A stretch of DNA of 46,944 nucleotides from Alphaproteobacteria bacterium UBA3637 (lineage in GTDB: Bacteria; Pseudomonadota; Alphaproteobacteria; CAAHEQ01; UBA3637). The position numbers and the translations under genes are program-made. The stretch lies in contig DFKU01000040.1 in the NCBI GenBank assembly GCA_002373615.1, positions 1-46,944 of the forward strand, in the 5' to 3' direction. Shown piece after piece: positions 1 through 46,944 of the stretch (its first letter is position 1; each line of letters opens with the position of its first letter). Below the pieces are notes generated by a model. That model was not told the DNA's origin, did not search any database, and saw only the letters and a program-made list of their open reading frames with translations.

Positions 1-364
1 TCATGGCGGAATTATAGCCCGCTATCCCTGCGACACTCAAGACGCCCATCACCGCCAGGACACCCAGCATTTCCACCATACTGCGGCCACACTCACCCGT
101 CATTACGAGCCCACCTTTTTTATATCCCGTCATTGCGAGCCCGATAGGGCGTGGCAATCTGCCAGAGATTGCTTCGTTGGCAAGGCCGCCTCGCAATGAC
201 AATGAAGGGGTAGAACGCCCATACTTCTCTGTCATCCTTGGGGCAGCGTCAGCTGAACCCGAGGATCCAGCGGTATGTAGAACCTTATTTCCTACCAGAT
301 TCTCGCTTACGCAAGAATGACAAATCGAATTAAAGTTCTTTTCTTTTTTTAATAAAATATTCAT
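1..364 (-). CDS. type IV pilin-like (class III signal-peptide-like) protein, paralog 1; 3' end runs off the window
   Basis: My own translation of the minus strand from the ATG at 364-362 (GGGAG upstream) stays open for 121 codons to position 1. It gives a 93-aa leader ending ...LVMTGECG, followed by RSMVEMLGVLAVMGVLSVAGIAGYNSAM. The same block occurs in the ORFs at 24668, 37060 and 41616. It is absent from the ORF track because no stop codon lies within the window. Confidence 0.6.
   Translation of the reverse strand, partial: MNILLKKEKNFNSICHSCVSENLVGNKVLHTAGSSGSADAAPRMTEKYGRSTPSLSLRGGLANEAISGRLPRPIGLAMTGYKKGGLVMTGECGRSMVEMLGVLAVMGVLSVAGIAGYNSAM
99..112. repeat. solo terminal half of the GTCATTGCGAG-type palindromic element
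   Basis: GTCATTACGAGCCC matches the terminus of the elements at 129-200 and 24696-24759. It lies inside the leader-peptide coding region of paralog 1. Confidence 0.5.
129..200. repeat. palindromic MITE/RPE-like element, family 1 (termini GTCATTGCGAG / CTCGCAATGAC)
   Basis: The terminal inverted repeats are at 129-139 and 190-200. There is an inner stem GCAATCT...AGATTGC. It is GC-rich relative to its surroundings. A second copy lies at 24696-24759. This copy is translated in frame within the paralog 1 leader. Confidence 0.7.
230..322. repeat. palindromic MITE/RPE-like element, family 2 (termini TGTCATCCTTG / CAAGAATGACA)
   Basis: It has imperfect terminal inverted repeats. Related copies are at 24788-24842 (partial) and 46891-46944 (cut by the window end). 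It is in frame within the paralog 1 leader. Confidence 0.65.
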
Positions 365-15992: not shown

Positions 15993-18779
15993 TTACTTTG
16001 CCCCTTTCAATAATTCAACCAAACGCCATAGACCTGTTCCATGGGATGATTTCACCAAAACAACATCCCCCGTTTGCAGAATATTTGTTATGATTTCCAT
16101 CAATTCTTCCGGTGTCTTTGCCCACCCTTGTTGGATTTCTTTGGGAAGTGTTTCCAGCATTTTTTGCATGAAAATTCCTGTAGCAAAAACCCCTTGAATA
16201 TTATTGTGTGCTAAAACAGCGCTCAAGTCAAGATGATTTTTTAAAGATTCCTCCCCTAATTCCAACATATCTCCCAAAACAGCAATTTTTCGGCCTTGAT
16301 ACAGACCCAACATATTAATGGCGGCCGTCATTGAGCCCGGGTTCGCATTATAGGCGTCATCAATTAAAGTTATTTTTTTCCCATTGATAATGATTTCTTG
16401 CGCTTGACCACGTCCCGCCATAGGTGTCAAATTTTCCAACGTTTGAATGGCCAAAGGAACACTGGCACCAACCGAATCAATGACACCCAATACCCCCATG
16501 GCATCCAAAGCATAATGTTCGCCGATAAAGTGCATGGAAAAGTCACCCCTTTCCCCCATCATATCGGCTTTCACAAATTGCTTTTTATCATGGATAGAAA
16601 CATTTTTTAATTGGTAATCTGCTTTATCAGATTTACCAAATTTAATGATTTTATGAATGTTTTCTGAGACAGCAAAATCTGCCAAAATTTGTGCTCCCAA
16701 CGTATCTGCATTTAAAACAGCAACCCCGTTTTTATTTTGAAAATCAAAGATATGTGCTTTTTCGGCAGCAGTGACTTCAGGTGTTTTGAAAAATTCTTGG
16801 TGTGCCGGTTGAACATTCGTGATAATGCTGACATCAGGGCGCACCAAATCCGACAGCTCATGCATTTCACCCACGTGACTGATGCCCATTTCAATCACAG
16901 CATATTCGGAATTTGCCGGCATATTGGCCAAAGTATAAGGCACCCCCAAATTACTGTTTAAATTCGCCCGTGTAATATAGGTTTTGCCCTGGGCAGACAA
17001 ACAAGCCCCCAACATTTCTTTCACGGTGGTTTTTCCGGAACTGCCCGTTACCCCTATCACTTGAGCGGTCGTACGCATGCGGGCAAAACGGGCCAGTGCC
17101 AGCAAGGCTTCTTGAGTATCCAAGACAACAATTTGCTTTTCTATCGGGATATCCGCCAAGGGATGATTGACGACACAAGCCGCCGCCCCGGCTTCCACAG
17201 CCGCTTTCACAAATTCGTGACCATCCCGTGCGCCCCCCGTCAAAGCAATAAATAAATCCCCAATTTTGACTTCTTTGGAATTAAAGGTTACCCCATGGGC
17301 ATTGATAAATTCGGGCACTTCCACCCCCAGCGCCATTTGTAATTCTGATGCCTTCCATAAAGGCCTTTCGGTTAAATTTTTAAGCATAAGTTGTACCTCA
17401 ATTCTATCGTTAAACGGATATTCGGTGGGGCCGATTTTTTGTGTCGCTTCATGTCCTTTACCGGCCAACACCAAAACATCCCCTTTTTCGGCTGTGGCTA
17501 TCGCATGACGAATGGCCTCAAAACGCGTTTTTTCTTCTATCCCTTTGGGACAAGCTGCCAAAATTTCCGACCGAATTGTGGCAGGATTTTCTGACCTTGG
17601 GTTATCGTCCGTCACATAAACCACATCAGCCAACCGATTCGCAATTGCTCCCATCTGGGGACGTTTTCCTTTATCCCGATCCCCCCCACATCCAAACAGA
17701 CACATCAGGCGATTTTGGGTGTGTAAGCGCAGCGACTTTAAAACATGTTCCAGTCCATCCGGCGTATGGGCATAATCCACGAACACAAGCGCCCCTTTGG
17801 GCGTTTTCCCCATCAATTCCAATCGTCCTGCTGGGGCTTTTAATTGGGGTAAAAACCGAATAAGTTCTTCCCATTTTGCCCCCAGCGCATGACAAAGTCC
17901 CATCGCCGCCATTAAATTCATTCCTTGGAAATCCCCAAAGATGGGAACTTCAATTTCATATTCTTTTCCCAAAATTTCTAAGGTCAATTTTTGACCCTTT
18001 TCGGTGGGTTCTTGATTTTTTAATTTTAAAGTTTCCCCGTTTTTTCCATAGGAAACAATTTGTTCTCCACGGGATTCAGCCAATTTTTTCAGATCAAAAT
18101 ATTCGGGGATATCGGCATTTAAAACAGCTGTATCCCCCGCCCTTAAAATTTCAGAAAAGAGATTCTGTTTAGCCTGAAAATAATTTTCAAAAGTTTTATG
18201 ATAATCCATGTGATCGCGGGTTAAATTGGTAAAGGCCCCTGCTGCTAATTTTTGGCCCACCAAACGTCCTTGATCCAGCCCATGACTGGAAGCTTCCATC
18301 GCCACCACTTGAACGCCTTGCATCTCTAATTTTGCCAAAGTTTGGGCAAGTTCCTTGGGGGGTAAAGTTGTCATACCGCCATCAATATGTCCATCAGACC
18401 CGTCAATACCAATCGTACCCAAACTCACCGCTTTCACGCCCAATAAATTCATCAGTTGTTGCACAAAATATACAGTAGACGTTTTGCCATTGGTCCCCGT
18501 TACCGCCACTTTTTTTATGCTTTCAGAAGGCCATAAAAGGGCGCAAACACGTGCCAATTCGCGCCGCACATCCTTTACCACACGCACAGGAACATCACAC
18601 TTTATTTCGTGGTTGGCCACAATGGCTGAAGCCCCACGCTCAATCGCCTGTGGAATAAAATCAGCGCCATCCGCCTTGGTTCCTTTGATGGCAAAAAAGG
18701 CACAGGCTTTTGTCACCTTGTCAGCACATTCGGTGACATCCGTAATTTTATTTTCATCTAACCAATTTTTTAAGTCCAT
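15993..18779 (-). CDS. murEF: fused MurE-MurF (UDP-MurNAc-tripeptide synthetase and UDP-MurNAc-pentapeptide synthetase in one ORF)
   Basis: Single 928-aa ORF. The N-terminal half has VTGTNGKTST and DDNPRSENP (MurE). The C-terminal half has VTGSSGKTTVKE and NLNSNLGVPYTL (MurF). No stop codon or frameshift separates the halves. Confidence 0.88.
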   Translation of the reverse strand: MDLKNWLDENKITDVTECADKVTKACAFFAIKGTKADGADFIPQAIERGASAIVANHEIKCDVPVRVVKDVRRELARVCALLWPSESIKKVAVTGTNGKTSTVYFVQQLMNLLGVKAVSLGTIGIDGSDGHIDGGMTTLPPKELAQTLAKLEMQGVQVVAMEASSHGLDQGRLVGQKLAAGAFTNLTRDHMDYHKTFENYFQAKQNLFSEILRAGDTAVLNADIPEYFDLKKLAESRGEQIVSYGKNGETLKLKNQEPTEKGQKLTLEILGKEYEIEVPIFGDFQGMNLMAAMGLCHALGAKWEELIRFLPQLKAPAGRLELMGKTPKGALVFVDYAHTPDGLEHVLKSLRLHTQNRLMCLFGCGGDRDKGKRPQMGAIANRLADVVYVTDDNPRSENPATIRSEILAACPKGIEEKTRFEAIRHAIATAEKGDVLVLAGKGHEATQKIGPTEYPFNDRIEVQLMLKNLTERPLWKASELQMALGVEVPEFINAHGVTFNSKEVKIGDLFIALTGGARDGHEFVKAAVEAGAAACVVNHPLADIPIEKQIVVLDTQEALLALARFARMRTTAQVIGVTGSSGKTTVKEMLGACLSAQGKTYITRANLNSNLGVPYTLANMPANSEYAVIEMGISHVGEMHELSDLVRPDVSIITNVQPAHQEFFKTPEVTAAEKAHIFDFQNKNGVAVLNADTLGAQILADFAVSENIHKIIKFGKSDKADYQLKNVSIHDKKQFVKADMMGERGDFSMHFIGEHYALDAMGVLGVIDSVGASVPLAIQTLENLTPMAGRGQAQEIIINGKKITLIDDAYNANPGSMTAAINMLGLYQGRKIAVLGDMLELGEESLKNHLDLSAVLAHNNIQGVFATGIFMQKMLETLPKEIQQGWAKTPEELMEIITNILQTGDVVLVKSSHGTGLWRLVELLKGAK

Positions 18780-18781
18780 AT

Positions 18782-20524
18782 TTACCTTCTTTTTTTAGCG
18801 GCCACTGACCGTTCAATGGCCCGTTCAATGTAGGCAGGTTGCTTCCAATCCTCCACGGGTGCTACCCCCAGGTATGGGGCAATATCCCCAATGATTTGAA
18901 GCCCCGTTGCTTTGGCATTCCACCCCGCCGTATTAAACATGTGTGTTTCTTTAACCTTTTGTGGATCATCGTATGATACCAAAACAATATACTTTGGATC
19001 ATTCATCGGAAAAACACCTACAAAACTGGTTCTGAGCGATCCTTCCACATAGTGTCCTTTTTCCAGCGCTTGACGGGACCCCGTTTTACCCCCAACTGCA
19101 TACATGGCCACAGGACTGTTTTTGGCAAGTTCATAGTTCACAACTGCCCACATCATGTGACGCATTTTTTGGGAAGTATCTTCTGAAATCACACGCATTT
19201 CTGATTTATCTTTATTGCCCCCTTTGATAAAAGTGGGCGTATGATAAAGACCGCCATTTGCTAAAGAAGCCACCCCTGCAATCAAATGCAGAGGCGTCAC
19301 CGAAATGCCATACCCATAAGACAGACGAGAAGACTCCACTTCATTCCATTTTTCTTTTTTAATGTATTGGGGCTGTGCCCGTTCAGGGAGCGCAATCGGC
19401 AATTTTTCATAAAACCCAAAACGCCCAAAAAATTCTTTTTGATTTTCCCAGCCAATTTTAAGCCCAATTTGTGCAGACCCGATATTGGAGGAATGGATTA
19501 AAATTTCAGGGACTGTTAAAGGACGATTTTGTCCCCGATAATCTTCAATCGCTTTTGCCCCTTTTAATTTCAAAGGTTTTGAGGCATCAAAGACATCATT
19601 GACTGTAATTGTTTTCGTTTCCAGTCCAAGAGCGGTGTTAAACAGTTTAAAAACGGATCCAAATTCATAAGTCCCCAATGTTGCTTGATTAAATCTGGCT
19701 TTTTCTGACTCCTTAAGTGGCACATTTGGATCATAATCAGGAAGAGAAACAGAGGCCAAAACTTCCCCGTTATTCACATCCATAATCAAAGCCAATCCTC
19801 CTTTTGCTTTAAATTTTTCAATACCTTGTAAAAGAGCACTTCTTGCAATTTCTTGAATTGAAATATCAATAGATAATTGCACATCTTTATCCATTAATTC
19901 TGTATCATAGGCCTTTTCAATCCCAGAAATACCGATATTATCAATATCCACCCCCCCCAATAAATGTGATATCAGCGGCCCTTGTGGGTACACTCGCTTT
20001 TCTATTGGGTGCGCTGTTAAAAAGTAATATCCTAACCAATTAATTGCATCATATTCAGCAGGAATAATTCCCCGTTTAATGTATTCAAAACCACTTAAAC
20101 TTGTGATTTTTTCATAAACGGTTGCAGTGTTCATTCCCAGTGCTTTTGCTATTTTTTCAGCAATTTCATCGACGTCAGTACGATCACGAACCAAAGCAGG
20201 ATTTACAGATAAATCCCACATAGGTAAACTGGTCGCCAAAATAATCCCATTCCTGTCTAAAATATTATGGCGATTAAGGGCGTAATGTGTTTGTACTTCG
20301 GATTGAAATGTACGCGGTTCATAATTCATAACTGTCAGATAAAACAATCGCCCAATGATAACAACATACAAAAGCAAAAACCAAAAAGCAACAAATCCCA
20401 TTCGGCCAGAGGCAATTTTTAATTGGTGTCTGGTGGTCATGTCCAAATAACGCCACTTATCCATTTTTTTTAAGGGGATTTCTTGGCAGGGAAAATAAAA
20501 AGAATCCCTCTTTTTCTTAAACAT
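18782..20524 (-). CDS. ftsI: penicillin-binding protein 3 / FtsI transpeptidase
   Basis: N-terminal transmembrane helix, then the motifs SVFK, SSN and KTGS. Confidence 0.92.
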   Translation of the reverse strand: MFKKKRDSFYFPCQEIPLKKMDKWRYLDMTTRHQLKIASGRMGFVAFWFLLLYVVIIGRLFYLTVMNYEPRTFQSEVQTHYALNRHNILDRNGIILATSLPMWDLSVNPALVRDRTDVDEIAEKIAKALGMNTATVYEKITSLSGFEYIKRGIIPAEYDAINWLGYYFLTAHPIEKRVYPQGPLISHLLGGVDIDNIGISGIEKAYDTELMDKDVQLSIDISIQEIARSALLQGIEKFKAKGGLALIMDVNNGEVLASVSLPDYDPNVPLKESEKARFNQATLGTYEFGSVFKLFNTALGLETKTITVNDVFDASKPLKLKGAKAIEDYRGQNRPLTVPEILIHSSNIGSAQIGLKIGWENQKEFFGRFGFYEKLPIALPERAQPQYIKKEKWNEVESSRLSYGYGISVTPLHLIAGVASLANGGLYHTPTFIKGGNKDKSEMRVISEDTSQKMRHMMWAVVNYELAKNSPVAMYAVGGKTGSRQALEKGHYVEGSLRTSFVGVFPMNDPKYIVLVSYDDPQKVKETHMFNTAGWNAKATGLQIIGDIAPYLGVAPVEDWKQPAYIERAIERSVAAKKRR

Positions 20525-23198: not shown

Positions 23199-23545
23199 TT
23201 TATTTTCCTTTCTGTCAAAGTTGTTTTCATCATTCTTGTTCTTAAGTATTAAAATTCAAATTACTTAAATTTTAATTTCTTTTATTTTTACATTTTCAGC
23301 GTATTTATTTTTATAAAAAAAGTCAAGTTGATTTTTTTATTTTTACTTCTTTAAAATTGGGGTTAAAGTAAAAATAAAATACTGCATCCGTTTCCTCTTA
23401 AGCGCCCAAAAGGTGCTTTTATTTTATAATCTGAGTGTAAGATAAATTGATGTCGGAATTGGTACAAGTCAAAAGTCTAACTGATAAAAAAATTATCGTT
23501 CGTTTTAATATTGCTTTTTTTATTTTCTTTTGCTAAAATACTTCT

Positions 23546-23719
23546 GCCCGAGAGGGTGGGGTGTGATAGCCTCTCTCAATACGTCCAGCAGGACGAAGAT
23601 CTTCAATCGGTAAAGTCCGGTTGGATGGCCGCTAAATAAGGGACTTTGTCTTGAATAGGTGGCACTATTTATTGAGTAGTTATCACCTCCAACCACTTTT
23701 TGGGTGGTTTAATTTTTTT
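23546..23719 (+). promoter_or_regulatory. structured 5' leader RNA (type A1) with terminator/antiterminator, upstream of a small lipoprotein gene
   Basis: Promoter is TTGCTT at 23511-16, 17-nt spacer, TAAAAT at 23534-39. A helix pairs AAAGUCC (23612-18) with GGACUUU (23641-47). GGUUGGA(U)GG at 23619-28 is complementary to CCUCCAACC at 23686-94. That segment overlaps the terminator stem AACCAC/GUGGUU, which is followed by a U-run at 23710-19. A near-identical copy lies at 44200-44376 on the minus strand. Confidence 0.6.
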
Positions 23720-23730
23720 CAAGGAGTATA

Positions 23731-23916
23731 ATGATGAAAAAACTATTTTTAATTTTAATCGCGTTTGCTTTGACGGGGTGCACCTATGCGGGGCCCTTTG
23801 TGACACATATATCACAAAATAAAGATGGGAGCTTAACTGTGGAAAAATGTATGGTGGAACACAATGCTTTTTCTGGGGCCATCGCCACCACAAATTGCAC
23901 CCAATCTAAAGTATAA
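23731..23916 (+). CDS. small lipoprotein (61 aa), paralog of 44004-44189
   Basis: Lipobox LTGC. The mature part begins CTYAGPFVTHISQNKDGSLTVEKCMVEHN...TTNCT, with 3 conserved Cys. It has an AAGGAG RBS. Confidence 0.75.
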   Translation: MMKKLFLILIAFALTGCTYAGPFVTHISQNKDGSLTVEKCMVEHNAFSGAIATTNCTQSKV

Positions 23917-24667: not shown

Positions 24668-25036
24668 ATGGACATGAAAAATAGAAAAATAAATTGTCAT
24701 TGCGAGCCCATCAGGGTGTGGCAATCTCACGAGATTGCTTCACATACGTTCGCAATGACGGGTGAGTGTGGGCGTTCTAGCCCCACCTGTCATCCTTGGA
24801 CGAGCGTCAGCGAGATCCGAGGATCCACTGGACGTGGCCTTAACGTACCTCGTTGTGCACAATACGCACAATCCGGGCGCAGTATGGTGGAAATGCTGGG
24901 CGTCCTGGCGGTGATGGGCGTCCTCAGTGTTGCGGGCATCACGGGCTATAATTCCGCTATGAATAAGCATCGCGCCAACGAGCTCTTAAACGAGGCCTCC
25001 AAACGCGCCGCACCTGTCGCCATGCATTTGATGTAG
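24668..25036 (+). CDS. type IV pilin-like protein, paralog 2 (short; possibly truncated or pseudogenised)
   Basis: A 70-aa leader ends in SG, followed by RSMVEMLGVLAVMGVLSVAGITGYNSAMNKHRANE... The ORF stops only about 52 aa after the putative cleavage site. The leader contains two palindromic elements in frame. Confidence 0.5.
   Translation: MDMKNRKINCHCEPIRVWQSHEIASHTFAMTGECGRSSPTCHPWTSVSEIRGSTGRGLNVPRCAQYAQSGRSMVEMLGVLAVMGVLSVAGITGYNSAMNKHRANELLNEASKRAAPVAMHLM
24696..24759. repeat. palindromic element family 1, copy 2
   Basis: GTCATTGCGAGCCC...GGCAATCTC-AC-GAGATTGC...TTCGCAATGAC, translated as CHCEPIRVWQSHEIASHTFAMT. Confidence 0.7.
24788..24842. repeat. palindromic element family 2, partial copy
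   Basis: TGTCATCCTTGG...GCGTCAGC..GA.CCGAGGATCCA matches the left part of 230-322. Confidence 0.55.
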
Positions 25037-27762: not shown

Positions 27763-27913
27763 GCATTTTGATTTTGGTCAAAATGTCGGGTCTGAAAAAT
27801 CCGTACAATCTATCCGTCCAGAATCGGGCGGATGACCGCCCAATAAATTGAATAAGTGGTACTATGATTGTATAGTTTTTCAGCATCCGTCCACTAAAGC
27901 AGTGGATTTTTTT
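27763..27913 (+). ncRNA. orphan copy (type B1) of the structured leader RNA family; no downstream plus-strand gene
   Basis: Promoter is TTGACA at 27728-33, 17-nt spacer, TACCAT at 27751-56. Helices are GAAAAA/UUUUUC (27794-99 with 27876-81), UACAAUC/GAUUGUA (27804-10 with 27866-72), and the hairpin GGGCGG-AUGA-CCGCCC (27826-41). GGCGGAUG (27827-34) is complementary to CAUCCGUC (27884-91), which overlaps the terminator UCCAC-uaaagca-GUGGA plus U7 (27890-913). Confidence 0.6.
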
Positions 27914-27997
27914 AATGGCACATATGGGCGGTGCTGGCTGAATAAATTGAATAGGTCAGAGGTTTTTAATAGGACTAATACATTGAACGCCGCCCGC

Positions 27998-30855: not shown

Positions 30856-32238
30856 ATGAAAAAAAAGAAAGTAAAAATCTTTAATCATTTTGGAAAATTG
30901 GCCGCACGGACTTTGATTATCAACATTCCGGCGTTGCTGATTTTACTGATTTTATTGTTGTTAAAGAAATTGACCTGGATTTCTGCCAGTATTTCACTTT
31001 TTTCTTTTTGGACAATCAGCGCTATTATCATTTTCTTTGTTTTTAAGGACTTGGATAATTTTATTGCTTATTTAAAAAATGCTTCACAAAATTTGGATGT
31101 GGAACTCCCCCGATTCCGCAAAGGCTTTTTTTCTTCGGCCAGATTGGCCAACACATTCCAAAGCCTGCAAAACGCATGGCAACAAAAAACGCAAACAGGG
31201 GTTCATATTTTGGAAAATTTACCAGATCCGCTTTTAATGGTGAATGAAAAAGAAATGGTTGTTTTTGCAAATAATTCCGCTCGTAAAATTTGGTCAGAAG
31301 CTGCTGTCGATTTTAATGTCAGTGTGTTGTTTTCGGATCTGCATTTTACAAAAGCTTTTCAAGAATTGGTTCATAAGAAGACTCCAAAAGCCACCATTGA
31401 ATGGCAAACAACTTTAAACCAAAAGACATCTTATTATTTGGTCCAGATGGAACGCCTGCCATCCGCCAGCTTTTTGGAGGCCCTTTATGTGGTTGTTTTG
31501 CATGACATTACCCCATTCAAAGCCTTTAAGCAGCGTCAGGCCGATTTTTTTGCGAATGCCAGCCATGAACTCAAAACACCTTTAGCTATTTTATCAGGTG
31601 TCATTGAAACTCTACAAGGCCCCGCCAGAGATGATACAAACGCCCGTGAAAAGTTTTTAAATTTAATGGCAGAACAAACAAATCATATGAATGAATTGGT
31701 TCAAAATTTATTGAAGTTGGCCCATATGCAACAAGAAAAACTCCCTATCACTGAGCCTGTTTTGGTGGGAGAATTATTAACGGGACTGGTAAATGATTTT
31801 CAAATACGCGCCGAAAAAGCAGGAAAAGAAATTATTTTGGAAAAAGAAAACTTGCCCCGTTTGATGGCCGGACGCGCCGATTTGTACCATGTTTTTCAAA
31901 ACTTACTGGATAACGCTTTAAAGTATGGGCAAGAAAAATCCCCTATTACTATCAAGGCTTTTTTAAAAAACACCCCGCAAAAAGATTTTTCTTTGTTCGA
32001 TAAAAATGAATGGATTGTTGTCAGTATTCATAATTTTGGGAAAGCTTTGACCACCGAGGAACAAGAAAAGATTTTTGACCGTTTTTATCGCGTTAACTCC
32101 ACCCAAAAAGTGGAAGGAACAGGCTTGGGGTTAAGTATTGTTCAACACCTGGTCCAAAAGTATGATGGCACTGTGGAAGTCATCAGCTCTCCAGAATCAG
32201 GGACAACTTTCACGGTTTCTTTTCCCTTGGAATTTTAA
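30856..32238 (+). CDS. two-component sensor histidine kinase (PhoR-like architecture), no adjacent response regulator
   Basis: Two transmembrane helices, a PAS-like segment, the H-box [13 protein letters not shown], and N/G boxes ([19 protein letters not shown]). Confidence 0.85.
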
Positions 32239-32543
32239 TTGCTCACTAAAAACTCTTTTAACAGCTTCACTATTTCTTCTTGCATGGCCTGAGGAAGTGA
32301 GCCGATTTTTTTCGTTAAATGCTCTTTTGCCATAGGACGCATTAAATCCAAAGCAATTTGTCCCATTTGTCCTTTTAATTTTACCCCTACACGGCAAGGA
32401 AAGTTATGCTTCACGTTCGTAATTGGGGCAATCAAAACATAGGGAAGTAGCTCGTTCATTTCATTTGGAGACAAAACAATACAAGGCTTTTCACCCCCCC
32501 GAATTTCACACATAAAAACATCAAATTTTTTTACCATTCCCAT
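32235..32543 (-). CDS. mazF: MazF/PemK-family type II toxin (mRNA interferase)
   Basis: 102 aa with PCIVLSP...LIAPITN...IALDLMRPMAKEHL, the typical PemK pattern. It overlaps the antitoxin gene. Confidence 0.8.
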   Translation of the reverse strand: MGMVKKFDVFMCEIRGGEKPCIVLSPNEMNELLPYVLIAPITNVKHNFPCRVGVKLKGQMGQIALDLMRPMAKEHLTKKIGSLPQAMQEEIVKLLKEFLVSN

Positions 32544-37059: not shown

Positions 37060-37836
37060 ATGAAAAGAAATAATTTAAAACAAAATGTCATTCTGAGTGA
37101 AACGAAGAATCTGATGAGATCCTTCACATTCGTTCAGGATGACAGAGAATCTGGTCGGTCGATGGTGGAAATGTTGGGAGTGTTAGCAGTGATGGGCGTC
37201 TTGAGTGTCGCGGGCATTGCCGGTTATAATACAGCGATGAATCAACACCGTGCCAATGAAGCCGTTAACTCTGCGATGCGGGCGGCGGTTATGTTATCTG
37301 CGCAACGCCTCGCCAATCCATCCGCCACTTTAAGTGCCAACGGTTTAGACAGTGCCATTACTGTTGGTAATGACACGGATAAACTGGTTTTGACTTTAAG
37401 CAATGTGGATGAAAAAGTCCGTTCCAGAATTGAGGCCATGGGACTTAAAAACGCCACGATCAGCTCTGATGGAAATGGTGCTTTAACTTTTACCTTTAAC
37501 AACGATTTATCCGAAAGAAACAGTGCGGGCGGAAATGAGCAACAAGAGCCCGAGCCCGTTGCTGACCCGTGTGCAGGATTTACTGCGACGATTTGCACAA
37601 CAGCTTGCACAAATAATAATGGAAAAGCTATTTATACCTATGAAAAGAAGGGGACAGCTTGTGGTATAGACGGAGGTAGAGCTTGTGATGGAAATGGAAT
37701 TTGCAATCGATGCCCTGATGACACATATGCAGCTTTATCATCGTATGGTAATGGTGATGAGAGTAATGTACCTGGCTGTAACTGTTCTGGATCAATGGGA
37801 TGGAACTCACAGCTTGAAAGATGTGAAAAAAAATAA
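37060..37836 (+). CDS. type IV pilin-like protein, paralog 3, with Cys-rich C-terminal module
   Basis: A 32-aa leader ends in ESG, followed by RSMVEMLGVLAVMGVLSVAGIAGYNTAMNQHRANE. Next come a small beta-rich region, an acidic/Pro linker (QQEPEPVADP), and a C-terminal module with 12 Cys. Confidence 0.65.
   Translation: MKRNNLKQNVILSETKNLMRSFTFVQDDRESGRSMVEMLGVLAVMGVLSVAGIAGYNTAMNQHRANEAVNSAMRAAVMLSAQRLANPSATLSANGLDSAITVGNDTDKLVLTLSNVDEKVRSRIEAMGLKNATISSDGNGALTFTFNNDLSERNSAGGNEQQEPEPVADPCAGFTATICTTACTNNNGKAIYTYEKKGTACGIDGGRACDGNGICNRCPDDTYAALSSYGNGDESNVPGCNCSGSMGWNSQLERCEKK
37086..37144. repeat. palindromic element family 3 (TGTCATTCTGAG...CAGGATGACA)
   Basis: Inverted termini with an inner stem GAAGAATCTG/..; translated in frame as VILSETKNLMRSFTFVQDD within the leader peptide. 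Confidence 0.65.
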
Positions 37837-39568: not shown

Positions 39569-40175
39569 ATTTCACCCCCGATATTTTTAAGATAACCCCT
39601 TCTGAATATTCATTTGGAAATTCTTCAATTTGTGCGTCAAATTGGCAATTTTTTATTTCCTCTTTATACCCTTTTCCTTTTGGTAAAATCCAAATTGTTT
39701 CACGTGAAACAATTTTTCGACACAATATAAGTATTTGATTTAATTCAGAAAATGCACGACAAGTTAAAACATCACTTTTTAAATTTTCTATCTTTTCTAC
39801 CCGTTCGGATAGGATATTTAAATTGAGTCCTAATTGCCTATTTACCTCTTTCAAAAAGATAGCTTTTTTATTATCGCTTTCAATTAAAGTAATTGTTAAA
39901 GGAAAATTGGCAACTTTATTTAAAATTCCCAAAATAATTCCAGGAAATCCGCCGCCGCTCCCCACATCCGTTAAAGTTTTACTTGAATCAGGAATATATT
40001 TCCAAAGTTGAGCAGAATCCAAAACATGTCTTTTTTGAAGATCAGGGATAGTATTTTTTGAAATTAAATTTACATGTTTTTGCCATTCAAGCAAAACTTT
40101 GATATATTTTTCAATATCTTGTTGTGATTCCTTTAAAACTTTTTCAAATTGTTTCACGTGAAACATTCCCCTCAT
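39561..40175 (-). CDS. rsmG: 16S rRNA (guanine527-N7)-methyltransferase
   Basis: GSGGGFPG SAM-binding motif and the conserved rsmG-parA-parB order. Confidence 0.92.
   Translation of the reverse strand: MRGMFHVKQFEKVLKESQQDIEKYIKVLLEWQKHVNLISKNTIPDLQKRHVLDSAQLWKYIPDSSKTLTDVGSGGGFPGIILGILNKVANFPLTITLIESDNKKAIFLKEVNRQLGLNLNILSERVEKIENLKSDVLTCRAFSELNQILILCRKIVSRETIWILPKGKGYKEEIKNCQFDAQIEEFPNEYSEGVILKISGVKYE
39696..39711. promoter_or_regulatory. parS: parS site 1 (TGTTTCACGTGAAACA)
   Basis: Exact match to the canonical 16-bp parS palindrome. It lies inside the rsmG 3' region and is read as VSRET. Confidence 0.9.
40150..40165. promoter_or_regulatory. parS: parS site 2
   Basis: Exact TGTTTCACGTGAAACA at the rsmG 5' end, read as MFHVK. 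Confidence 0.9.
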
Positions 40176-40229: not shown

Positions 40230-40634
40230 TTAAAAATAAAATTTTACAGTATTTTTTGAACAATTACTTTTTTCTATATTTTTTGCACCAGCAAAATGAT
40301 TATCAAAACTATTACAGAGTTTTTCTTCTACCCGATTTAAAGTGATAGAAAATCCCCCATTTGATTCAGATTTAGCCGAAGCAGGATACCCAGCAATAGA
40401 AAATGTTTCACGTGAAACATTTTGAGGATTTGACAACATAAGTGTTTGAATTTCAATATTTTTTATTTGTAATTCTTGAGCAATTTTATTCTTTTTTAAT
40501 TGAAAATTAGCTGTATTATATCCTTTGACAGATTGAGCAGTCATCATTCCGTCCACAGCCATACTTCCCATTAGGTCAATCATTTGCGCTGAAGTAGAAA
40601 GTGATGTACCCAGTATTAGTAAAAATAAAATCAT
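40230..40634 (-). CDS. hypothetical secreted protein
   Basis: The start at 40634 overlaps the dnaQ stop (ATGA). It has a signal-like N terminus, MILFLLILGTSLSTSAQ. It contains parS site 3. Confidence 0.55.
   Translation of the reverse strand: MILFLLILGTSLSTSAQMIDLMGSMAVDGMMTAQSVKGYNTANFQLKKNKIAQELQIKNIEIQTLMLSNPQNVSRETFSIAGYPASAKSESNGGFSITLNRVEEKLCNSFDNHFAGAKNIEKSNCSKNTVKFYF
40404..40419. promoter_or_regulatory. parS: parS site 3
   Basis: Exact 16-mer within a 22-bp perfect palindrome, AAATGTTTCACGTGAAACATTT. Confidence 0.9.
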
Positions 40635-41317
40635 ATCTCCCCCCATATTGGATTTTTAATTTTTGATAAAAATTCTGTGTGGGCAGATTCTTCCGTTGGA
40701 TCTAAATTCCACTCACGTACAGGAAATGTTTCACGTGAAACATTTTTTAAATTATGACTAACTGTTTGATTTTGTTGTTTTTTTTGAGTGGAAGAAAAAT
40801 TTAATTCCCGATTTGTAATCAATTCCAGATACACGTCAGCCAATAATTCTGAGTCCAACAAAGCCCCATGGACCGTCCGGCGCGAAGCATCCACTTTATA
40901 GCGCTTGCATAATTCATCCAAGTTCACTCTTGCCCCTGGAAATTTTTTCCGCGCAATTAATAATGTATCAATGACAGGATTTGGTAATTCTGCTTTTCCA
41001 CAGGCCTTTAATTCGTAATTCAAAAAATTCATATCAAAGGCGGCATTATGGATCACAAGCGGCGTATTTTCGCCAACGAAGGCCAAAAAATCATCTGCAA
41101 TTTCTTCAAATAATGGCTTGTCAGACAAAAATTCTTCCGTCAAACCGTGCACAGCTACAACTTCCTGGCTGATAGCGCGCATTGGATTAATGTATTGATG
41201 ATACGTCTTTCCGGTCGGTAAGTGGTTTTCCAATTCCACACACCCAATTTCAACAATCTTATCCCCCTTTTCGGGATTCAGTCCTGTTGTTTCTGTATCC
41301 AAAACGATTTCACGCAT
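40631..41317 (-). CDS. dnaQ: DNA polymerase III epsilon subunit (3'-5' proofreading exonuclease)
   Basis: Exo I DTETTGL, Exo II HNAAFD, Exo III HGALLDSELLADVY. Confidence 0.93.
   Translation of the reverse strand: MREIVLDTETTGLNPEKGDKIVEIGCVELENHLPTGKTYHQYINPMRAISQEVVAVHGLTEEFLSDKPLFEEIADDFLAFVGENTPLVIHNAAFDMNFLNYELKACGKAELPNPVIDTLLIARKKFPGARVNLDELCKRYKVDASRRTVHGALLDSELLADVYLELITNRELNFSSTQKKQQNQTVSHNLKNVSRETFPVREWNLDPTEESAHTEFLSKIKNPIWGEI
40727..40742. promoter_or_regulatory. parS: parS site 4
   Basis: Exact 16-mer within the same 22-bp palindrome, in the dnaQ C-terminal tail (NVSRETF). Confidence 0.9.
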
Positions 41318-41407: not shown

Positions 41408-41591
41408 GAATCAAGCAGGTGCTTGGTTCGGCTGGGCGTAAGACCCCTGCAAAGTTGCTGATAAAGCGTAAAAACTGCCTTTTAGTTCAAAGGACTGGAA
41501 GGCAGGTAATAAAGGGCCTTTCAGGGCTTTTAATAACTGCGCATAACTTTGTAATGTCTTAACTTCCAGTCGCTGATAGCGACTTTTTTTA
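41408..41591 (+). promoter_or_regulatory. structured 5' leader RNA (type D) with terminator/antiterminator, upstream of pilin-like paralog 4
   Basis: Candidate promoter is TTGCGC at 41373-78, 17-nt spacer, TAGTGT at 41396-401. GACUGGAAG (41493-501) is perfectly complementary to CUUCCAGUC (41563-71). That segment overlaps the terminator AGUCGC-ugaua-GCGACU plus U7 (41568-91). The core GGACUGGAAGGcagGUAAUAAAGGG parallels the leaders at 377-580 and 23546-23719. Confidence 0.55.
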
Positions 41592-41615
41592 ACATTTAAC
41601 GAAAGGAAAAATAAA

Positions 41616-42212
41616 ATGAGTAAAAGTCAAAAGAAGAACGAACAAGGACGGTCCATGGTGGAAATGCTGGGGGTTTTAGCGGTGATCGGTGTCTTGAGTG
41701 TCGCAGGCATTGCAGGGTATAATACAGCCATGCGGTCACACAAAGCCAATGAAGTTTTGAATGCAGCCAGTATGTTTTATGTGCTAGCAAAAGCCCAAAA
41801 TCAGGGGAATGGTCCAAGTGGTAATATAAACTATGCTGATGTGGGTGGTACAAATCCATCAGGGGCAACCCTCACCTACACAGACAATGCTTTCACCATC
41901 ACTTTCACGGATACGGATGATTGCACCATGGCCGCGAATAAGTTGGGTGACAAGGCAACTACTGATTGTACCAATAAAAAATTAACCGTTAACTTCGGGG
42001 AAACAACAACATCCCAAACACCAGAAGAACCTCAGGAAGATTTAACAATTGTAGACATGCAAGACGGAAATTGTCCTTCTGGATATAAACCTACAGGGAT
42101 AGATGATAAGTGTGCTAAATCATTAACAGATGCAGCAAAGCTATGTTCAAGCGGATGCGCGCAAGATACACCACTAGAATATGCTTGCGTTGATTCCAGT
42201 TATTGTCTATGA
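41616..42212 (+). CDS. type IV pilin-like protein, paralog 4 (archetype with short leader), with Cys-rich C-terminal module
   Basis: MSKSQKKNEQG/RSMVEMLGVLAVIGVLSVAGIAGYNTAM. This is a short basic leader ending in Gly, with Glu at +5 and a roughly 20-aa hydrophobic helix. It continues with a small beta region, an acidic/Pro linker (TPEEPQED), and a C-terminal module with 6 Cys. It has an AAAGGA RBS. Confidence 0.7.
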   Translation: MSKSQKKNEQGRSMVEMLGVLAVIGVLSVAGIAGYNTAMRSHKANEVLNAASMFYVLAKAQNQGNGPSGNINYADVGGTNPSGATLTYTDNAFTITFTDTDDCTMAANKLGDKATTDCTNKKLTVNFGETTTSQTPEEPQEDLTIVDMQDGNCPSGYKPTGIDDKCAKSLTDAAKLCSSGCAQDTPLEYACVDSSYCL

Positions 42213-42271: not shown

Positions 42272-44014
42272 ATGCCTATCCGATTACTCCCCCAAAATCT
42301 TGTCAATCAAATTGCTGCCGGTGAGGTGGTGGAACGCCCCGCCAGTGCCATTAAAGAATTGATTGAAAATGCGATTGATGCGTGTGCCACCCAGATTGAT
42401 GTGCGCTTGGAAAACGGGGGAAAGACCTTTTTTTCGGTGGCGGATAACGGAAAAGGCATGAGTCAAGAGGAACTGCCTGTTGCCATTCAAAGACATGCGA
42501 CCAGTAAATTGCCCAAAGATGACCTGTTAGACATCAATTTTTTGGGCTTTCGGGGGGAAGCGCTCCCCTCCATCGCTTCTGTTGCCAAAATGACAATAAC
42601 CTCACGCACAGCGGATTCGGACACAGGTTGGCGGTTAGAGGTAACGGGCGGCATTACCGAAAAGCCCTGCCCTGCCCCACGCGCCCTTGGGACAACGATA
42701 GAGGTCCATAACCTCTTTTACAATGTCCCTGCCCGCCTTAAATTTTTAAAATCCGATCAAAGTGAGCAAGGGGCCATCAGGGAAGTCTTTGATCGCTTGG
42801 CGATGGGGAACCCAGAAATTACTTTTTCTTTGGCCACAGAAAATAGGAAACTCGCCCATTATCCCGCAACAGAAAGCCTGTTTGACCGTGTCGCTATGGT
42901 AATTGGGCATCAATTTAAAGAAAACGCCCTGCCCGTTCAGGCAGAATATGAAGGGATAAAATTGGCGGGCTTTGTGGGCCTGCCCACCTATACGCGCGCC
43001 ACCAGTACAGAACAATACTTATTTGTCAATGGGCGCTCGGTCAAAGATAAAGTGTTGTTGGGTGCGATTCGGGGCGCTTATCAAGGTTTAATGGGGCATG
43101 GCAGTGAGGGGCACCCTGTCCTTGCCCTATTCCTGTCTGTTCCAAAAGATAAAATTGATGTCAATGTGTCGCCCGCCAAAACAGAAGTGAGATTTGCCGA
43201 GGCCGGACGAATTCGGGGATTATTGGTCGCCAGTATCCGAAATGCTTTGGCGGAACACGGGCAAAAGACCGCAAGTACCATTTCTATCGGGGCTTTGGAT
43301 ACCTTTATTCCCCGTGAAACACCTATGGCCTATTCGGCACCGGTGCGTCATACGCCTGTCCAACATACTTTCAATTTACAGGACTCTTATCAGGTTAAAA
43401 AGGAAGTATCCGCCCCTACCCCCGTGGTTGAGGATGACTTTCCGCCGTTGGGCCTGGCCAAAGCGCAAGTCCATAAAACATATATTATTGCCCAAACAAA
43501 AGAGGGCTTTGTGGTGGTGGATCAACACGCGGCGCATGAACGGCTGACCTATGAAAAAATGATGGCCAATTTTGGCGAACACCCGCAAACACAACTGTTG
43601 TTGGTGCCTGAAATTATCGATTTAAAGCCGGAAGAAGTGGCCCTATTAAATGCGCGTGCGCCCGAATTAAAAGAAATGGGCTGGGTGATTGATCCCTTTG
43701 GGGCGGATTCTGTGGCGGTCAGGGAACTCCCTGCATTACTTGATAAAACAGATATTCAAAAGACCATTCAAGATTTGGTGGATACCCTGCGCGCCTTTGA
43801 TGATACCGTTTTATTAAAGGATAAAATGAAAGATATTTGCGCGCGCATGGCGTGCCATGGATCGGTCAGGGCCGGGCGTGTTTTAAATCTTGATGAAATG
43901 AATGCCCTTTTGCGTCAAATGGAGGCCTGTGGCACCTCAGGTCAATGTATCCACGGGCGCCCCACCTATATTGAACTCAAATTAAAAGATATTGAAAAAT
44001 TGTTTAACCGATAA
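42272..44014 (+). CDS. mutL: DNA mismatch repair protein MutL
   Basis: GHKL N terminus NQIAAGEVVERPASAIKELIENAIDA and a C-terminal dimerisation region; 580 aa. Confidence 0.95.
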   Translation: MPIRLLPQNLVNQIAAGEVVERPASAIKELIENAIDACATQIDVRLENGGKTFFSVADNGKGMSQEELPVAIQRHATSKLPKDDLLDINFLGFRGEALPSIASVAKMTITSRTADSDTGWRLEVTGGITEKPCPAPRALGTTIEVHNLFYNVPARLKFLKSDQSEQGAIREVFDRLAMGNPEITFSLATENRKLAHYPATESLFDRVAMVIGHQFKENALPVQAEYEGIKLAGFVGLPTYTRATSTEQYLFVNGRSVKDKVLLGAIRGAYQGLMGHGSEGHPVLALFLSVPKDKIDVNVSPAKTEVRFAEAGRIRGLLVASIRNALAEHGQKTASTISIGALDTFIPRETPMAYSAPVRHTPVQHTFNLQDSYQVKKEVSAPTPVVEDDFPPLGLAKAQVHKTYIIAQTKEGFVVVDQHAAHERLTYEKMMANFGEHPQTQLLLVPEIIDLKPEEVALLNARAPELKEMGWVIDPFGADSVAVRELPALLDKTDIQKTIQDLVDTLRAFDDTVLLKDKMKDICARMACHGSVRAGRVLNLDEMNALLRQMEACGTSGQCIHGRPTYIELKLKDIEKLFNR

Positions 44015-44189
44015 TATCGGTTGTGCAATTTTTGGTAGAAACTGTACCCAAAATATTATGCTCCATCATACACTTTTCAACCTTTAAGTCCCCTGATTTT
44101 GTACGCGAAATATTGGTGACATAAGGCCCGGCATAGGTGCACCCTGTCAAAACAAACACGATAAAAATTAAAAATAGTTTTTTCATCAT
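44004..44189 (-). CDS. small lipoprotein (61 aa), paralog of 23731-23916
   Basis: I moved the start to the ATG at 44189 (MMKKLFLIFIVFVLTGC, AAGGAG RBS). The mature part is CTYAGPYVTNISRTKSGDLKVEKCMMEHN...TKNCT. Its 3' end overlaps the mutL stop region by 11 nt in a convergent arrangement. Confidence 0.75.
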   Translation of the reverse strand: MMKKLFLIFIVFVLTGCTYAGPYVTNISRTKSGDLKVEKCMMEHNILGTVSTKNCTTDIIG

Positions 44190-44199
44190 TATACTCCTT

Positions 44200-44376
44200 A
44201 AATAAAATTTAAACCACCCCAAAAGTGGTTGGAGATAGGAAACTACTCAATAAATAGTGCCACCTATTCAAGACAAAGCCCCTTATTTAGCGGCCATCCA
44301 ACCGGACTTTACCGATTGAAGATCTTCGTCCTGCTGGACGTATTGAGAGAGGCTATGATACCCCACCCTTCCGGGC
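44200..44376 (-). promoter_or_regulatory. structured 5' leader RNA (type A2), near-identical copy of 23546-23719
   Basis: Minus-strand promoter is TTGCAA (44406-11), 17-nt spacer, TAGAAT (44383-88). The reverse complement aligns almost base for base with A1. The GGGACUUU to GGGGCUUU change keeps pairing as a G-U wobble. The terminator is CCAACCAC-uuuu-GGGGUGGUU. Confidence 0.6.
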
Positions 44377-44419
44377 AAGGCTATTCTAACACAAACAAAT
44401 ATAATTTGCAAGACAATAA

Positions 44420-44685
44420 TGAGAGTGGATAACTTTGGGATAACTGGGGATAACTTGGGATAAAAAAATTTCATCAAAATATTTTTCAGAATTTATTCTT
44501 TTTTATACACAGATAAAAAGAAGAATTTTTCAGCCTTATACGATTCGCCCATCAGACCTTTTATTGCCCTAAAAAAAACGATTCGTTTTAAACTTAAAAT
44601 TCCTGTCAACAAAAATAAGAAAAAGTTTTCCACATTATCCACAGGGCTACTAAAACAACTATATTTATTATATAAAAAAGGAAAA
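44420..44685. other. oriC: candidate chromosomal replication origin (oriC): DnaA-box cluster plus AT-rich tract
   Basis: Four GGATAA-core boxes begin at 44427, 44438, 44448 and 44458, spaced 11, 10 and 10 bp apart; the first reads AGTGGATAA. A very AT-rich stretch spans 44461-44620. Tandem boxes TTTTCCACA (44626-34) and a perfect TTATCCACA (44635-43) follow. Four parS sites lie 4-5 kb away. Confidence 0.45.
44626..44643 (+). promoter_or_regulatory. tandem DnaA boxes (TTTTCCACA TTATCCACA)
   Basis: The second 9-mer equals the consensus TTATCCACA. The first matches 8 of 9 positions. Confidence 0.6.
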
Positions 44686-46668: not shown

Positions 46669-46820
46669 GCACTTGGCAAGGGCCAATGTGCCGGATTTGA
46701 AAAGTCCGTATAGTGTTGTCCGTCCTGTATTGGATGGATGACCGTCCAATATAATGAATAAACGGTACTGTCACTATACAGCTTTTCAACATCCGTCCAC
46801 TTTTAAAAGTGGAATTTTTT
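46669..46820 (+). promoter_or_regulatory. structured 5' leader RNA (type B2) with terminator/antiterminator, upstream of pilin-like paralog 5
   Basis: Promoter is TTGACA at 46634-39, 17-nt spacer, TATTCT at 46657-62. Helices are GAAAAG/CUUUUC (46699-704 with 46782-87), GUAUAGUG/CACUAUAC (46708-15 with 46772-79), and the hairpin UUGGAUGG-AUGA-CCGUCCAA (46730-49). GGAUGGAUG (46732-40) is complementary to CAUCCGUCC (46790-98), which overlaps the terminator UCCAC-uuuuaaaa-GUGGA plus a U-run (46796-820). Confidence 0.6.
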
Positions 46821-46848
46821 GTTGTCAATTAAAATGAAAGGATGAACA

Positions 46849-46944
46849 ATGGACAAATTATTAAAAAAAGAAAAGAATTTAAATTCGATTTGTCATTCTT
46901 GCGTAAGCGAGAATCCGGCAGGAAATAAGGTCCTACATACCGCT
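46849..46944 (+). CDS. type IV pilin-like protein, paralog 5 (5' end only; runs off the window)
   Basis: The sequence from the ATG at 46849 (AAAGGA RBS) is MDKLLKKEKNLNSICHSCVSENPAGNKVLHTA. By hand alignment, 87 of 96 nt are identical to the reverse complement of 269-364 (paralog 1). Membership in the pilin-like family is inferred from that homology only. Confidence 0.45.
   Translation, partial: MDKLLKKEKNLNSICHSCVSENPAGNKVLHTA
46891..46944. repeat. palindromic element family 2, copy cut by the window end
   Basis: TGTCATTCTTGCGTAAGCGAGAATCCGGCAGGAAATAAGG... matches the reverse complement of 230-322. Confidence 0.6.

Follow-up and report, generated by a model that had tools for sequence, protein, structure and literature searches.

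Dispersed prepilin-like genes with exchangeable tails in uncultured gut Alphaproteobacteria: a large family probably linked to a type IVb pilus

Results

The stretch of DNA analysed here, hereafter the window, is the entire 46,944-bp contig DFKU01000040.1 (P0315) of the uncultured Alphaproteobacteria bacterium UBA3637, and its subject is a family of genes for proteins that resemble type IV prepilins, five members of which (A to E) lie in it. The first-pass annotation had listed five such loci; four copies were verified by a six-frame motif scan, and the fifth, at 46849, is a well supported candidate. Gene D (41616..42212, plus strand) is a complete prepilin-like gene of 198 aa according to its open reading frame (ORF) and translation, and a second assembly calls an identical 198-aa gene. 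It encodes a leader, MSKSQKKNEQG (41616-41648), an alpha-1 helix, a small head, a linker rich in Glu, Pro and Thr and a Cys-rich C-terminal module, with the predicted cleavage between Gly and Arg (G|R) falling between 41648 and 41649. Gene C (37060..37836, plus strand; 258 aa; G|R site at 37153-37158) is also complete and resembles D only up to about residue 67 of D, beyond which it carries a head of another type (…TFTFNNDLSE) and a beta-rich C-terminal Cys module. Gene B (24668..25036, plus strand) has a leader of 70 aa laden with miniature transposable elements with inverted repeats (MITEs) and only 52 mature residues; it is probably a truncated remnant, and a homologue (L058) runs 426 aa beyond the NKHRANELLNEASKRAA segment that is also found in gene B. 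Gene A (1..364, minus strand) is a 5' part of 121 codons cut by the contig end. The complete gene A is present in a sister assembly (L098) and encodes a protein of 551 aa that includes 423 mature residues and 44 Cys; this copy also holds a 34-aa leader segment absent from the window copy, which could be either a strain polymorphism or an assembly collapse. Gene E (46849..46944, plus strand) comprises the first 32 codons of the presumed fifth member and breaks off inside a MITE. Its membership is well supported by 91% identity to the start of gene A over 97 nt (repeat I3), by the best-scoring leader RNA of the family, which sits 24 nt upstream, and by a similar leader in a related locus (L088; MKENKNFKLKSICHSCVSENPAENKALHTAGSS...ESG|RSMVEML) that continues into the block conserved in the family. 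All other assemblies break about 66 nt into gene E, and the two ends of the window are inverted copies of the same repeated leader.

The block that the window copies share, G|RSMVEMLGVLAV(M/I)GVLSVAGI(A/T)GYN(T/S)AM, was found four times by the motif scan and in the translations; its short form, GRSMVEMLGVLAV(M/I)GVLSVAGI(A/T)GYN, lies at 1-88 on the minus strand and at 24875, 37153 and 41646. Any two copies are 75-89% identical over the 87 nt and differ by one to three amino acids over the 29 codons. Most of the differences (8-16 per pair, out of 29) are in third codon positions, and the codon for Ser at +2 is AGT in A and B and TCG or TCC in C and D. This codon switch and the synonymous differences indicate that the conservation results from purifying selection on the protein and not from nucleotide homogenisation; gene conversion as its source was ruled out, because the differences are synonymous and numerous. 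The conservation at the nucleotide level that had been described for the block is accordingly to be read as conservation of the protein. Its GC content is, as had been remarked, higher than that of its surroundings, 54-61% against 41.6% window-wide. Past about residue 67 similarity among the window copies ends and their C-terminal parts are unrelated, while outside the window the heads and tails each have many homologues.

A Pfam scan of approximately 45 larger ORFs of the window returned mostly housekeeping genes, a few ORFs without a match and no pilus genes. The housekeeping set consists of fabD, an outer-membrane protein gene, mipZ, pgm, the dcw cluster, ndk, sodC, fadL, mutS, miaA, lptE, holA, parAB, gidB, dnaQ, mutL, a CDF transporter gene and a DnaJ-like gene. 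A motif scan of the 47-kb window detected no Walker A motif of the type II secretion system (T2SS) E protein, no T2SS-F motif and no motif of A24 prepilin peptidases. Both scans thus agree with the earlier statement that PilB/C/D/Q, Tad and T2SS genes are absent from these 47 kb, and that no pilus machinery lies near the genes is correct for the window.

The N-terminus was examined in 266 distinct sequences, collected with an anchor that leaves out positions -1 to +3 relative to the predicted cleavage. Arg at +1, Ser at +2, Met at +3, Glu at +5 and Met at +6 are present in all 266, Gly at -1 in 265 and Glu or Gln at -3 in 263. Upstream of this signature the residues vary freely in sequence and length; the usual leader is M-x(3-8)-N-E-[SQT]-G, with 6-11 aa rich in Lys, Asn, Glu and Gln. 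A conservation edge exactly at Gly-1 with free variation upstream is the pattern expected of a prepilin cleavage site. Class III signal peptides have a hydrophilic leader that ends in Gly or Ala and is followed by about 20-25 hydrophobic residues, often with Glu5 (PMC10191384). The leaders of the family are likewise hydrophilic with Gly at -1 (265/266), and the stretch after the predicted site (RSMVEMLGVLAVIGVLSVAGIAGY, with Glu+5 in 266/266) is hydrophobic, the departure being the charged Arg+1. In P0001 (185 aa), the window protein as predicted by a gene caller, the Met of RSMVEML was taken as the start, and several database entries begin with MVEML. The upstream ATG is nevertheless the true start, since it is preceded by the RNA motif described below and a ribosome-binding site (RBS), and since Gly-Arg-Ser is kept despite the switch of the Ser codon.

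Models of C and D were computed with AlphaFold2 (AF2). That of D has a predicted local distance difference test (pLDDT) score of 81 and shows a helix at 12-61, a head made of a four-stranded beta-sheet, a low-confidence Glu/Pro/Thr linker and a small Cys-rich module. That of C (pLDDT 78) begins with a disordered leader, continues with a helix at 38-85 and a head at 100-147 and ends, after a linker, in a beta-rich Cys module whose pLDDT exceeds 90. In both a 48-50-residue N-terminal helix is packed on a small beta-sheet head, which, as modelled, resembles the pilin 'lollipop' layout. Over the family, mature lengths range from about 50 to 882 aa with a median of 193 aa, and the number of Cys is even in 113 of 121 mature proteins, with a maximum of 74; even counts fit disulfide-bonded extracytoplasmic proteins. 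The tails are exchangeable, e.g. that of gene C is joined to other head types in P0066 and P0360. A tail with an F5/8 type C (discoidin) domain is encoded at L096:14456-15661 (minus strand), from the same sample as the window and at similar coverage, and other members carry PT-HINT (the pretoxin Hint domain of polymorphic toxins) or tails resembling the epidermal growth factor (EGF)-like part of teneurin. Besides the one in L096, grafted modules were found in P0328, P0320/P0369 and P0042, and galaxin-like repeats are present in some tails; most large tails matched no Pfam family. The idea of a variable cargo, put forward at first pass, is supported by this shuffling of tails among head types and by the recognised modules, some of which are of adhesion or toxin type. 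A C-type-lectin identity for the …NWWSA..FC…ALCE tails of large members was considered and dropped, as Pfam gave it no support.

The family genes of the window are preceded by a 5' region of 200-300 nt whose last part, immediately ahead of the RBS, is a terminator-like hairpin with a U-run. From eight homologous leaders a consensus with compensatory changes was obtained. The covariance model (R1) gave 34 matches at E<0.01 in 1.2 Mb, 26 of them directly upstream of family genes; 28 R1 matches lie outside the window, for example L058:9750-9862 and L017:6685-6798 (minus strand). In the 26 genes, ten of which bear insertions, the RNA and the RBS lie 6-32 nt ahead of the upstream ATG. When 31 sequences were aligned, 98.6% of the cells paired and nine of 14 pairs changed on both sides (in 90 cells), compared with 27-57% pairing in slid controls, although this alignment was fitted to the model and so favours the structure. 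Helix subtypes differ visibly (GGGCGGAUG/CAUCCGUCC, GGCUGGAAG/CUUCCAGUC and GGUUGGAAG/CUUCCAACC). The RNA is composed of a 9-bp long-range helix, a 5-bp inner helix, the terminator and the U-run, with conserved unpaired AAUAA…(hairpin)…AAUAA loops at the junction. Of the two strands of the 9-bp helix, the 3' one overlaps the 5' arm of the terminator, and the 5' one can be sequestered by a segment upstream of it. Single-sequence folds of the gene D leader change from P0 plus terminator to the long-range helix P1 once the 3' arm of the terminator is omitted. We read the leader RNA as a predicted terminator/antiterminator switch. No leader region matched Rfam 15 at the gathering threshold (only a tRNA did) or at E up to 5.

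In the window the best instance of this RNA, with 105.5 bits, precedes gene E (46715-46824, plus strand; terminator at 46796-46813). The leader RNA of gene A (378-499, minus strand; 33 bits) has the ATG 13 nt downstream and folds as P1 plus terminator. That of gene D (41478-41593, plus strand; 24.2 bits, E=1.5e-4 with filters off) lies 22 nt from the ATG and has its terminator hairpin at 41568-41584, followed by the U-run. The one upstream of gene B is degenerate (12.9 bits). An orphan copy at 27809-27916 (plus strand, 101 bits), with a partial second copy at 27926-27997, has no family gene downstream and may be a remnant of a lost pilin gene. Two more copies are situated upstream of paralogous genes for 61-aa lipoproteins, at 23603-23718 (plus strand) and 44201-44319 (minus strand), which indicates that the RNA switch is not exclusive to pilin genes. 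These two loci form an inverted duplication of about 400 nt, 78-87% identical (23500-23916, plus strand, and 44005-44422, minus strand), each duplicate consisting of the leader RNA and the lipoprotein gene (MMKKLFLI…TGC…).

Long basic leaders had been ascribed to the family; those of A, B, C and E are in fact short leaders split by insertions of palindromic hairpin elements with GTCAT…ATGAC ends. The element in C (37087..37143, plus strand) is a 57-nt palindrome (GTCATTCTGAG…TTCAGGATGAC) which lies in frame, encodes VILSETKNLMRSFTFVQDD and forms a perfect hairpin in the fold of the leader. Gene B contains elements at 24696-24759 and from 24789 (overall 24696-24850; search for terminal inverted repeats, TIR), gene A contains nested ones at 99-321 (minus strand), and the element in E (46892-46944) reaches the contig end. 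Of the 21 matches to the GTCAT…ATGAC ends found by the TIR search of the window, 18 fall inside family leaders. Similar elements occur in relatives (L005:3561-3616; also L006, L020, L058, L070 and others). The insertion point is a few codons ahead of the Gly-1 codon, and MITEs are also found in the flanks of the genes. Empty and filled sites can be compared directly: MKQKYKSESG|RS (P0024) is empty, MKQKYK-GILKQVQNDEVRDCHAIARNDG-ESG|RS (P0025) is filled and MKQKYKINK-VILSETKNLMRSFTNVQDGG-ESG|RS (P0022) is a second filled form. In the same way, gene C is filled and its close homologues P0317 and P0319 are empty (MKTNLLKNEQG|RS). In ten out of ten insertion-bearing leaders that follow the R1 motif the frame is open to Gly-1; if the leaders were untranslated, ten open frames would be expected by frame alone with a probability of (1/3)^10, about 2e-5. 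A strict TIR census, which is crude and missed the element in gene C, located 23 of its 31 elements in family genes or at a distance of less than 400 nt from them; as the loci are centred on family genes, this enrichment is only indicative. As far as we know, a concentration of MITEs in a leader that is predicted to be cleaved off is new. Another palindrome, AATGTTTCACGTGAAACATTT, is present in four copies (39687-39715, 40141-40169, 40395-40423 and 40718-40746) inside or at the ends of gidB, a 138-aa ORF and dnaQ, and is translated as …VSRETF… in dnaQ; it may be another small repeat tolerated in coding sequence, or an operator.

Searches beyond the window revealed the size of the family. With protein D as the query, 3,776 homologues were retrieved at E ≤ 1e-3 from a database clustered at 90% identity. 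When 1.84 billion representatives were searched with a family profile, 5,602 clusters at 50% identity were obtained (4,287 at E ≤ 1e-10), so that the family amounts to at least 5,600 such clusters. More than 594 matching stretches were found in contigs of one genome per species, and among the matches listed nearly all are from metagenome-assembled genomes (MAGs) named 'Alphaproteobacteria bacterium', from the guts of human, ruminant, rabbit and others. The MAG SIG60 holds 14 family copies counted over nine loci, and the source organism nine in the approximately 76 kb examined. Contigs of the source organism occur at roughly 20x coverage in the samples ERZ12302819 and ERZ28612943. In relatives, too, each gene stands alone with unrelated housekeeping genes around it, and synteny is lacking among the close homologues of D; the single scattering first noticed in the window holds for all relatives examined. 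Automated pipelines (NCBI, JGI) name some members PulG, PilE or 'type II secretion system protein'. A literature search on the motif strings found no paper with the motif in the library searched, one on RF32 and pili found nothing, and the Rs-D84 genome paper reports no pili in that order. We conclude that the scattered genes constitute a very large, previously undescribed type IV pilin-like family of uncultured gut Alphaproteobacteria.

Pilus machinery was found next to family members in relatives. In L081 a motif scan of the fetched loci detected one ATPase of the PilB/GspE type, 3 kb away from a family member. According to Pfam this is a type IVb pilus locus, with a PilS/Bundlin pilin, another PilS-like protein, T2SSF, T2SSE, two unknown proteins, a secretin and TcpQ. 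Three further contigs (L085, L091 and L092) share the order TcpQ-Secretin-PAP_PilO-unknown-T2SSE-T2SSF-PilS-like-PilS/Bundlin, and two of these contexts add a PilT-like T2SSE. The bundlin-type pilin inside the operons starts with MK(N/S)LYKNEQSG|RSMVEMLGVLAIIGVLS…, i.e. …G|RSMVEML. Its matches to the PilS/Bundlin Pfam families have E=1.9e-16 and 4.8e-13, and bundlin BfpA (PDB 1zwt) is a homologue with E=4e-6. Since a pilin inside a pilus operon has the same N-terminus, the signature is, in this clade, the class III signal peptide of a bona fide pilus subunit, and it is common to the dispersed genes as well. The operon ATPase has thousands of close relatives in gut Alphaproteobacteria, one of them from 'Proteobacteria bacterium CAG:495'; JGI labels some of these 'bfpD' and NCBI calls them 'TadA' in some records. 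The closest annotated system is a type 4b cluster on an E. coli plasmid with the same gene order and an A24 peptidase, the ATPase being 35% identical. One flank of the operons of relatives (L085:1-4881 and 16562-19444; L091; L092) contains two TrbC/VirB2-like genes and a gene for an unknown protein of 1,000-1,400 aa, and the other flank, in two of three contexts, contains VWA, PP2C phosphatase and Ser/Thr kinase genes.

Two other features of the window were recorded. In the dcw cluster an ORF of 928 aa (15993-18779, minus strand) has two complete sets of Mur-ligase domains and appears to be a MurE-MurF fusion. A gene for a MazF/PemK-type toxin (32235-32543, minus strand) lies between a histidine kinase gene and a 443-aa coiled-coil-like ORF.

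Discussion

We consider it likely that the products of these genes are type IV prepilins bearing class III signal peptides, the precursors of modular pilins linked to a type IVb pilus, in an uncultured gut alphaproteobacterium. The likeness to pilins that was noticed first is strengthened by the bundlin with the same leader inside the operons of relatives, by the conservation edge at Gly-1 and by the lollipop-like layout of the AF2 models. According to this explanation the protein would be inserted in the inner membrane via its hydrophobic segment of about 22 residues, and a prepilin peptidase would cut the short hydrophilic leader after the invariant Gly, exposing Arg+1 with Glu at +5. The alpha-1 helix of about 50 residues would then admit the subunit to the filament of a type IVb machine consisting of a secretin with TcpQ, PilO, a BfpD-like ATPase, a platform protein and a PilT-like ATPase. 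This machine is likely encoded once elsewhere in the genome, with the pilin genes dispersed singly. The bundlin/PilS-type pilin of the operon, which has the same N-terminus, would be the likely main subunit, and the dispersed paralogues would be alternative or minor modular pilins that combine the shared helix with one of several heads, a linker and an exchangeable disulfide-rich tail. Such a filament would display or release different surface modules, and most copies would be switched one by one by their terminator/antiterminator leader RNA. Being discarded, the leader peptide would tolerate in-frame insertions of palindromic MITEs.

Several observations weigh against this explanation. The pilus operon was seen in four related contigs and not in the approximately 76 kb of the source organism. 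The main gap is the prepilin peptidase. The window, 80 genome loci and the 10 kb on either side of the four pilus operons yielded no A24 peptidase, and in the E. coli counterpart such a gene is present in the operon. Besides a motif scan, every ORF of the loci was compared by phmmer with the A24 peptidase that belongs to the E. coli type 4b cluster; polytopic ORFs of 140-330 aa were taken as candidates and rejected, since Pfam assigned them to BacA, Bax1-I, ATP synthase a, MlaE, CDF and similar families. The span searched, about 1.3 Mb of clade DNA from approximately 50 genomes, is biased to pilin loci and probably falls short of one genome equivalent, which is why we attach no significance to the absence. 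To our knowledge no characterised pilin has Arg at +1, where it places a charge at the beginning of the normally hydrophobic stretch. The N-terminal methylation model PF07963 (N_methyl) scores 14.8, 13.5 and 11.4 bits (cutoff 21.2) and TIGR02532 13.7-13.8 bits (cutoff 16.3). The profile searches that had been proposed as a check thus left all curated pilin models below their cutoffs, but PF07963, TIGR02532 and the PpdD-type NCBIfam models align in the correct G|FTLIE register. The bundlin-type pilin in the operons of relatives is likewise under the N_methyl cutoff (14.7 bits), and geopilin from the PDB (KKG|FTLIELLIVVAIIGIL) aligns with ESG|RSMVEMLGVLAIIGVL of the family. The heads of C and D match neither PilS nor Bundlin, and neither domain (PF08805 and PF05307, respectively) was matched in the window proteins A to D at E up to 10. 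Finally, a Foldseek comparison of the C and D models with the PDB gave no match with E below 0.09, which we regard as uninformative and not as negative, since models of long-helix pilins compare poorly with crystal structures truncated at the N-terminus.

Some of these observations would also fit plain signal-anchored (type II) membrane or periplasmic proteins, which start at the Met of RSMVEML or keep their leader uncleaved and use the helix as an anchor for Cys-rich ectodomains, with no pilus involved. The start chosen for P0001 and several database entries, the lack of a prepilin peptidase in the DNA searched and the pilin model scores under the cutoffs all speak for it. We nevertheless find it improbable. 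Gly-Arg-Ser and the Glu or Gln at -3, which lie upstream of that Met, are invariant despite synonymous and codon-family changes, the upstream ATG is preceded by the RBS and the leader RNA, and the ten MITE-bearing leaders after R1 are all in frame. The same N-terminus on the bundlin homologue in a pilus operon also argues against it, and an invariant Glu in a membrane anchor is hard to explain without a role in pilin assembly.

About as improbable, and in our estimate slightly more so, is that the proteins serve another type IV filament system, as pseudopilins of a T2SS or as Tad/Flp pilins, and not a type IVb pilus. The database labels 'type II secretion system protein', PulG and PilE, the name 'TadA' given to the clade ATPase in some NCBI records, and the mature part of B, which at 52 aa is of the size of an Flp pilin, could be taken in this sense. 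B, however, looks truncated in relation to its homologue in L058, and the median mature length of the family stands against the approximately 50-60 aa of Flp pilins. The motif is G|RSMVEM and not the Flp motif G|XXXXEY, Met and not Tyr being at +6. As for the GspG-K pseudopilins, only weak N-terminal matches to PpdD and XpsH were obtained, with E above 0.01. The only machinery adjoining a family member has the content and order of a type IVb locus (TcpQ, PAP_PilO, the bundlin/PilS pilin and the ATPase called 'bfpD' by JGI). It has no GspC/L/M or Tad (CpaB/C/E, TadB/C) gene content, and no gsp-specific genes were found in the pilus loci associated with the family.

Antigenic variation was suggested by the first-pass annotation, and a block of 87-109 nt common to the 5' end of many copies, the highly variable heads and tails and modules shuffled over evolutionary time speak for it. 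The dispersed copies would then be donor cassettes, recombined into a single expression locus by way of the conserved 5' block, as in Neisseria pilE/pilS or, in function, the R64 PilV shufflon. This is very improbable. Every copy is a complete gene that has an ATG and an RBS of its own and in most cases an attenuator RNA as well. Copies within one genome differ at 8-16 of the 29 third codon positions of the block, so that it is saturated with synonymous differences and recent gene conversion is not visible. The window also showed neither a recombinase nor repeats of the shufflon type.

The type IVb-linked pilin explanation can also be extended. The pilus might be a programmable display or delivery platform of a gut symbiont, with many tens of cargo pilins per small genome whose tails are lectin-like, EGF-like or of the HINT/toxin type, a private code [EQ]-x-G|R-S-M-V-E, a dedicated and possibly non-canonical peptidase, each gene gated by a new attenuator RNA responsive to a ligand or protein, and leaders acting as landing pads for mobile palindromes. 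This proposal is speculative and, taken as a whole, we hold it to be rather unlikely.

Among known systems the nearest are the type IVb pili, i.e. the bundle-forming pilus (BFP) of enteropathogenic E. coli with its bundlin BfpA, the PilS thin pilus of R64/Salmonella and the toxin-coregulated pilus (TCP) of V. cholerae. The operon of the relatives has a similar gene content and order, and its pilin matches Pfam PilS/Bundlin and PDB 1zwt. Type IVb pilins typically have some residue other than Phe at +1. The family differs in its leaders of 6-11 aa compared with the classical 13-30 aa, in an invariant Arg at +1 in place of Met, Leu, Val or Trp, in the absence of a PilS/Bundlin head from C and D of the window, in the absence of a peptidase gene from the operon of the relatives, and in pilin genes that are dispersed in many copies and not clustered.

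Type IV pili are usually described as having one major pilin and a handful of minor ones. PilB and PilC of Streptococcus sanguinis are modular type IV pilins in which a grafted C-terminal domain confers adhesion (Raynaud et al. 2021, PMC8179133; PMC10191384). The family studied here is similar in that the linker is followed by F5/8 type C, EGF-like or other Cys-rich modules. However, it has thousands of variants, 14 of them in nine loci of one MAG, where S. sanguinis has one or two per system; its modules are mostly unknown disulfide-rich folds, its genes lie outside the pilus locus and appear individually regulated, and the system would be type IVb in a diderm and not type IVa in a monoderm.

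The insertions and the RNA have their own parallels. Rickettsia palindromic elements were reportedly described by Ogata et al. in 2000. Short palindromic repeats in Rickettsia are found in frame in protein-coding genes and are translated (PMC10969869). The elements in our family are likewise palindromic, in frame and translated, but they are 56-130 nt long with GTCAT…ATGAC ends and are concentrated in the presumably disposable prepilin leader and the flanks of one gene family. As regards regulation, a c-di-GMP riboswitch precedes Clostridioides pilA1. Like attenuators and riboswitch platforms, the leader RNA has antiterminator and terminator helices that exclude each other, here located directly upstream of pilin genes; it differs from them in having no match in Rfam 15, in its distinctive AAUAA…AAUAA loops and in its presence ahead of two small lipoprotein genes as well. 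Unusual in the family as a whole are thus the invariant Arg+1-Ser-Met, the massive dispersed expansion of modular pilins, the MITE-bearing leaders and a dedicated RNA switch without an Rfam match.

Conclusions

The family is mostly unannotated because curated pilin models miss these genes, and the genes break metagenome assemblies. If the pilin explanation is true, we know of no larger natural collection of modular pilins, and the family would be a catalogue of new disulfide-rich binding domains directed at partner cells or at the gut environment. The invariant Arg+1-Ser-Met would allow a well-defined test of what is read by prepilin peptidases and by assembly machines, the leader RNA would be a handle on the choice among dozens of pilin genes, and cleaved leader peptides would prove able to absorb insertions of mobile elements. 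A lineage of Alphaproteobacteria from animal and human guts appears to spend a large share of a small genome on interchangeable pilin-fused surface modules.

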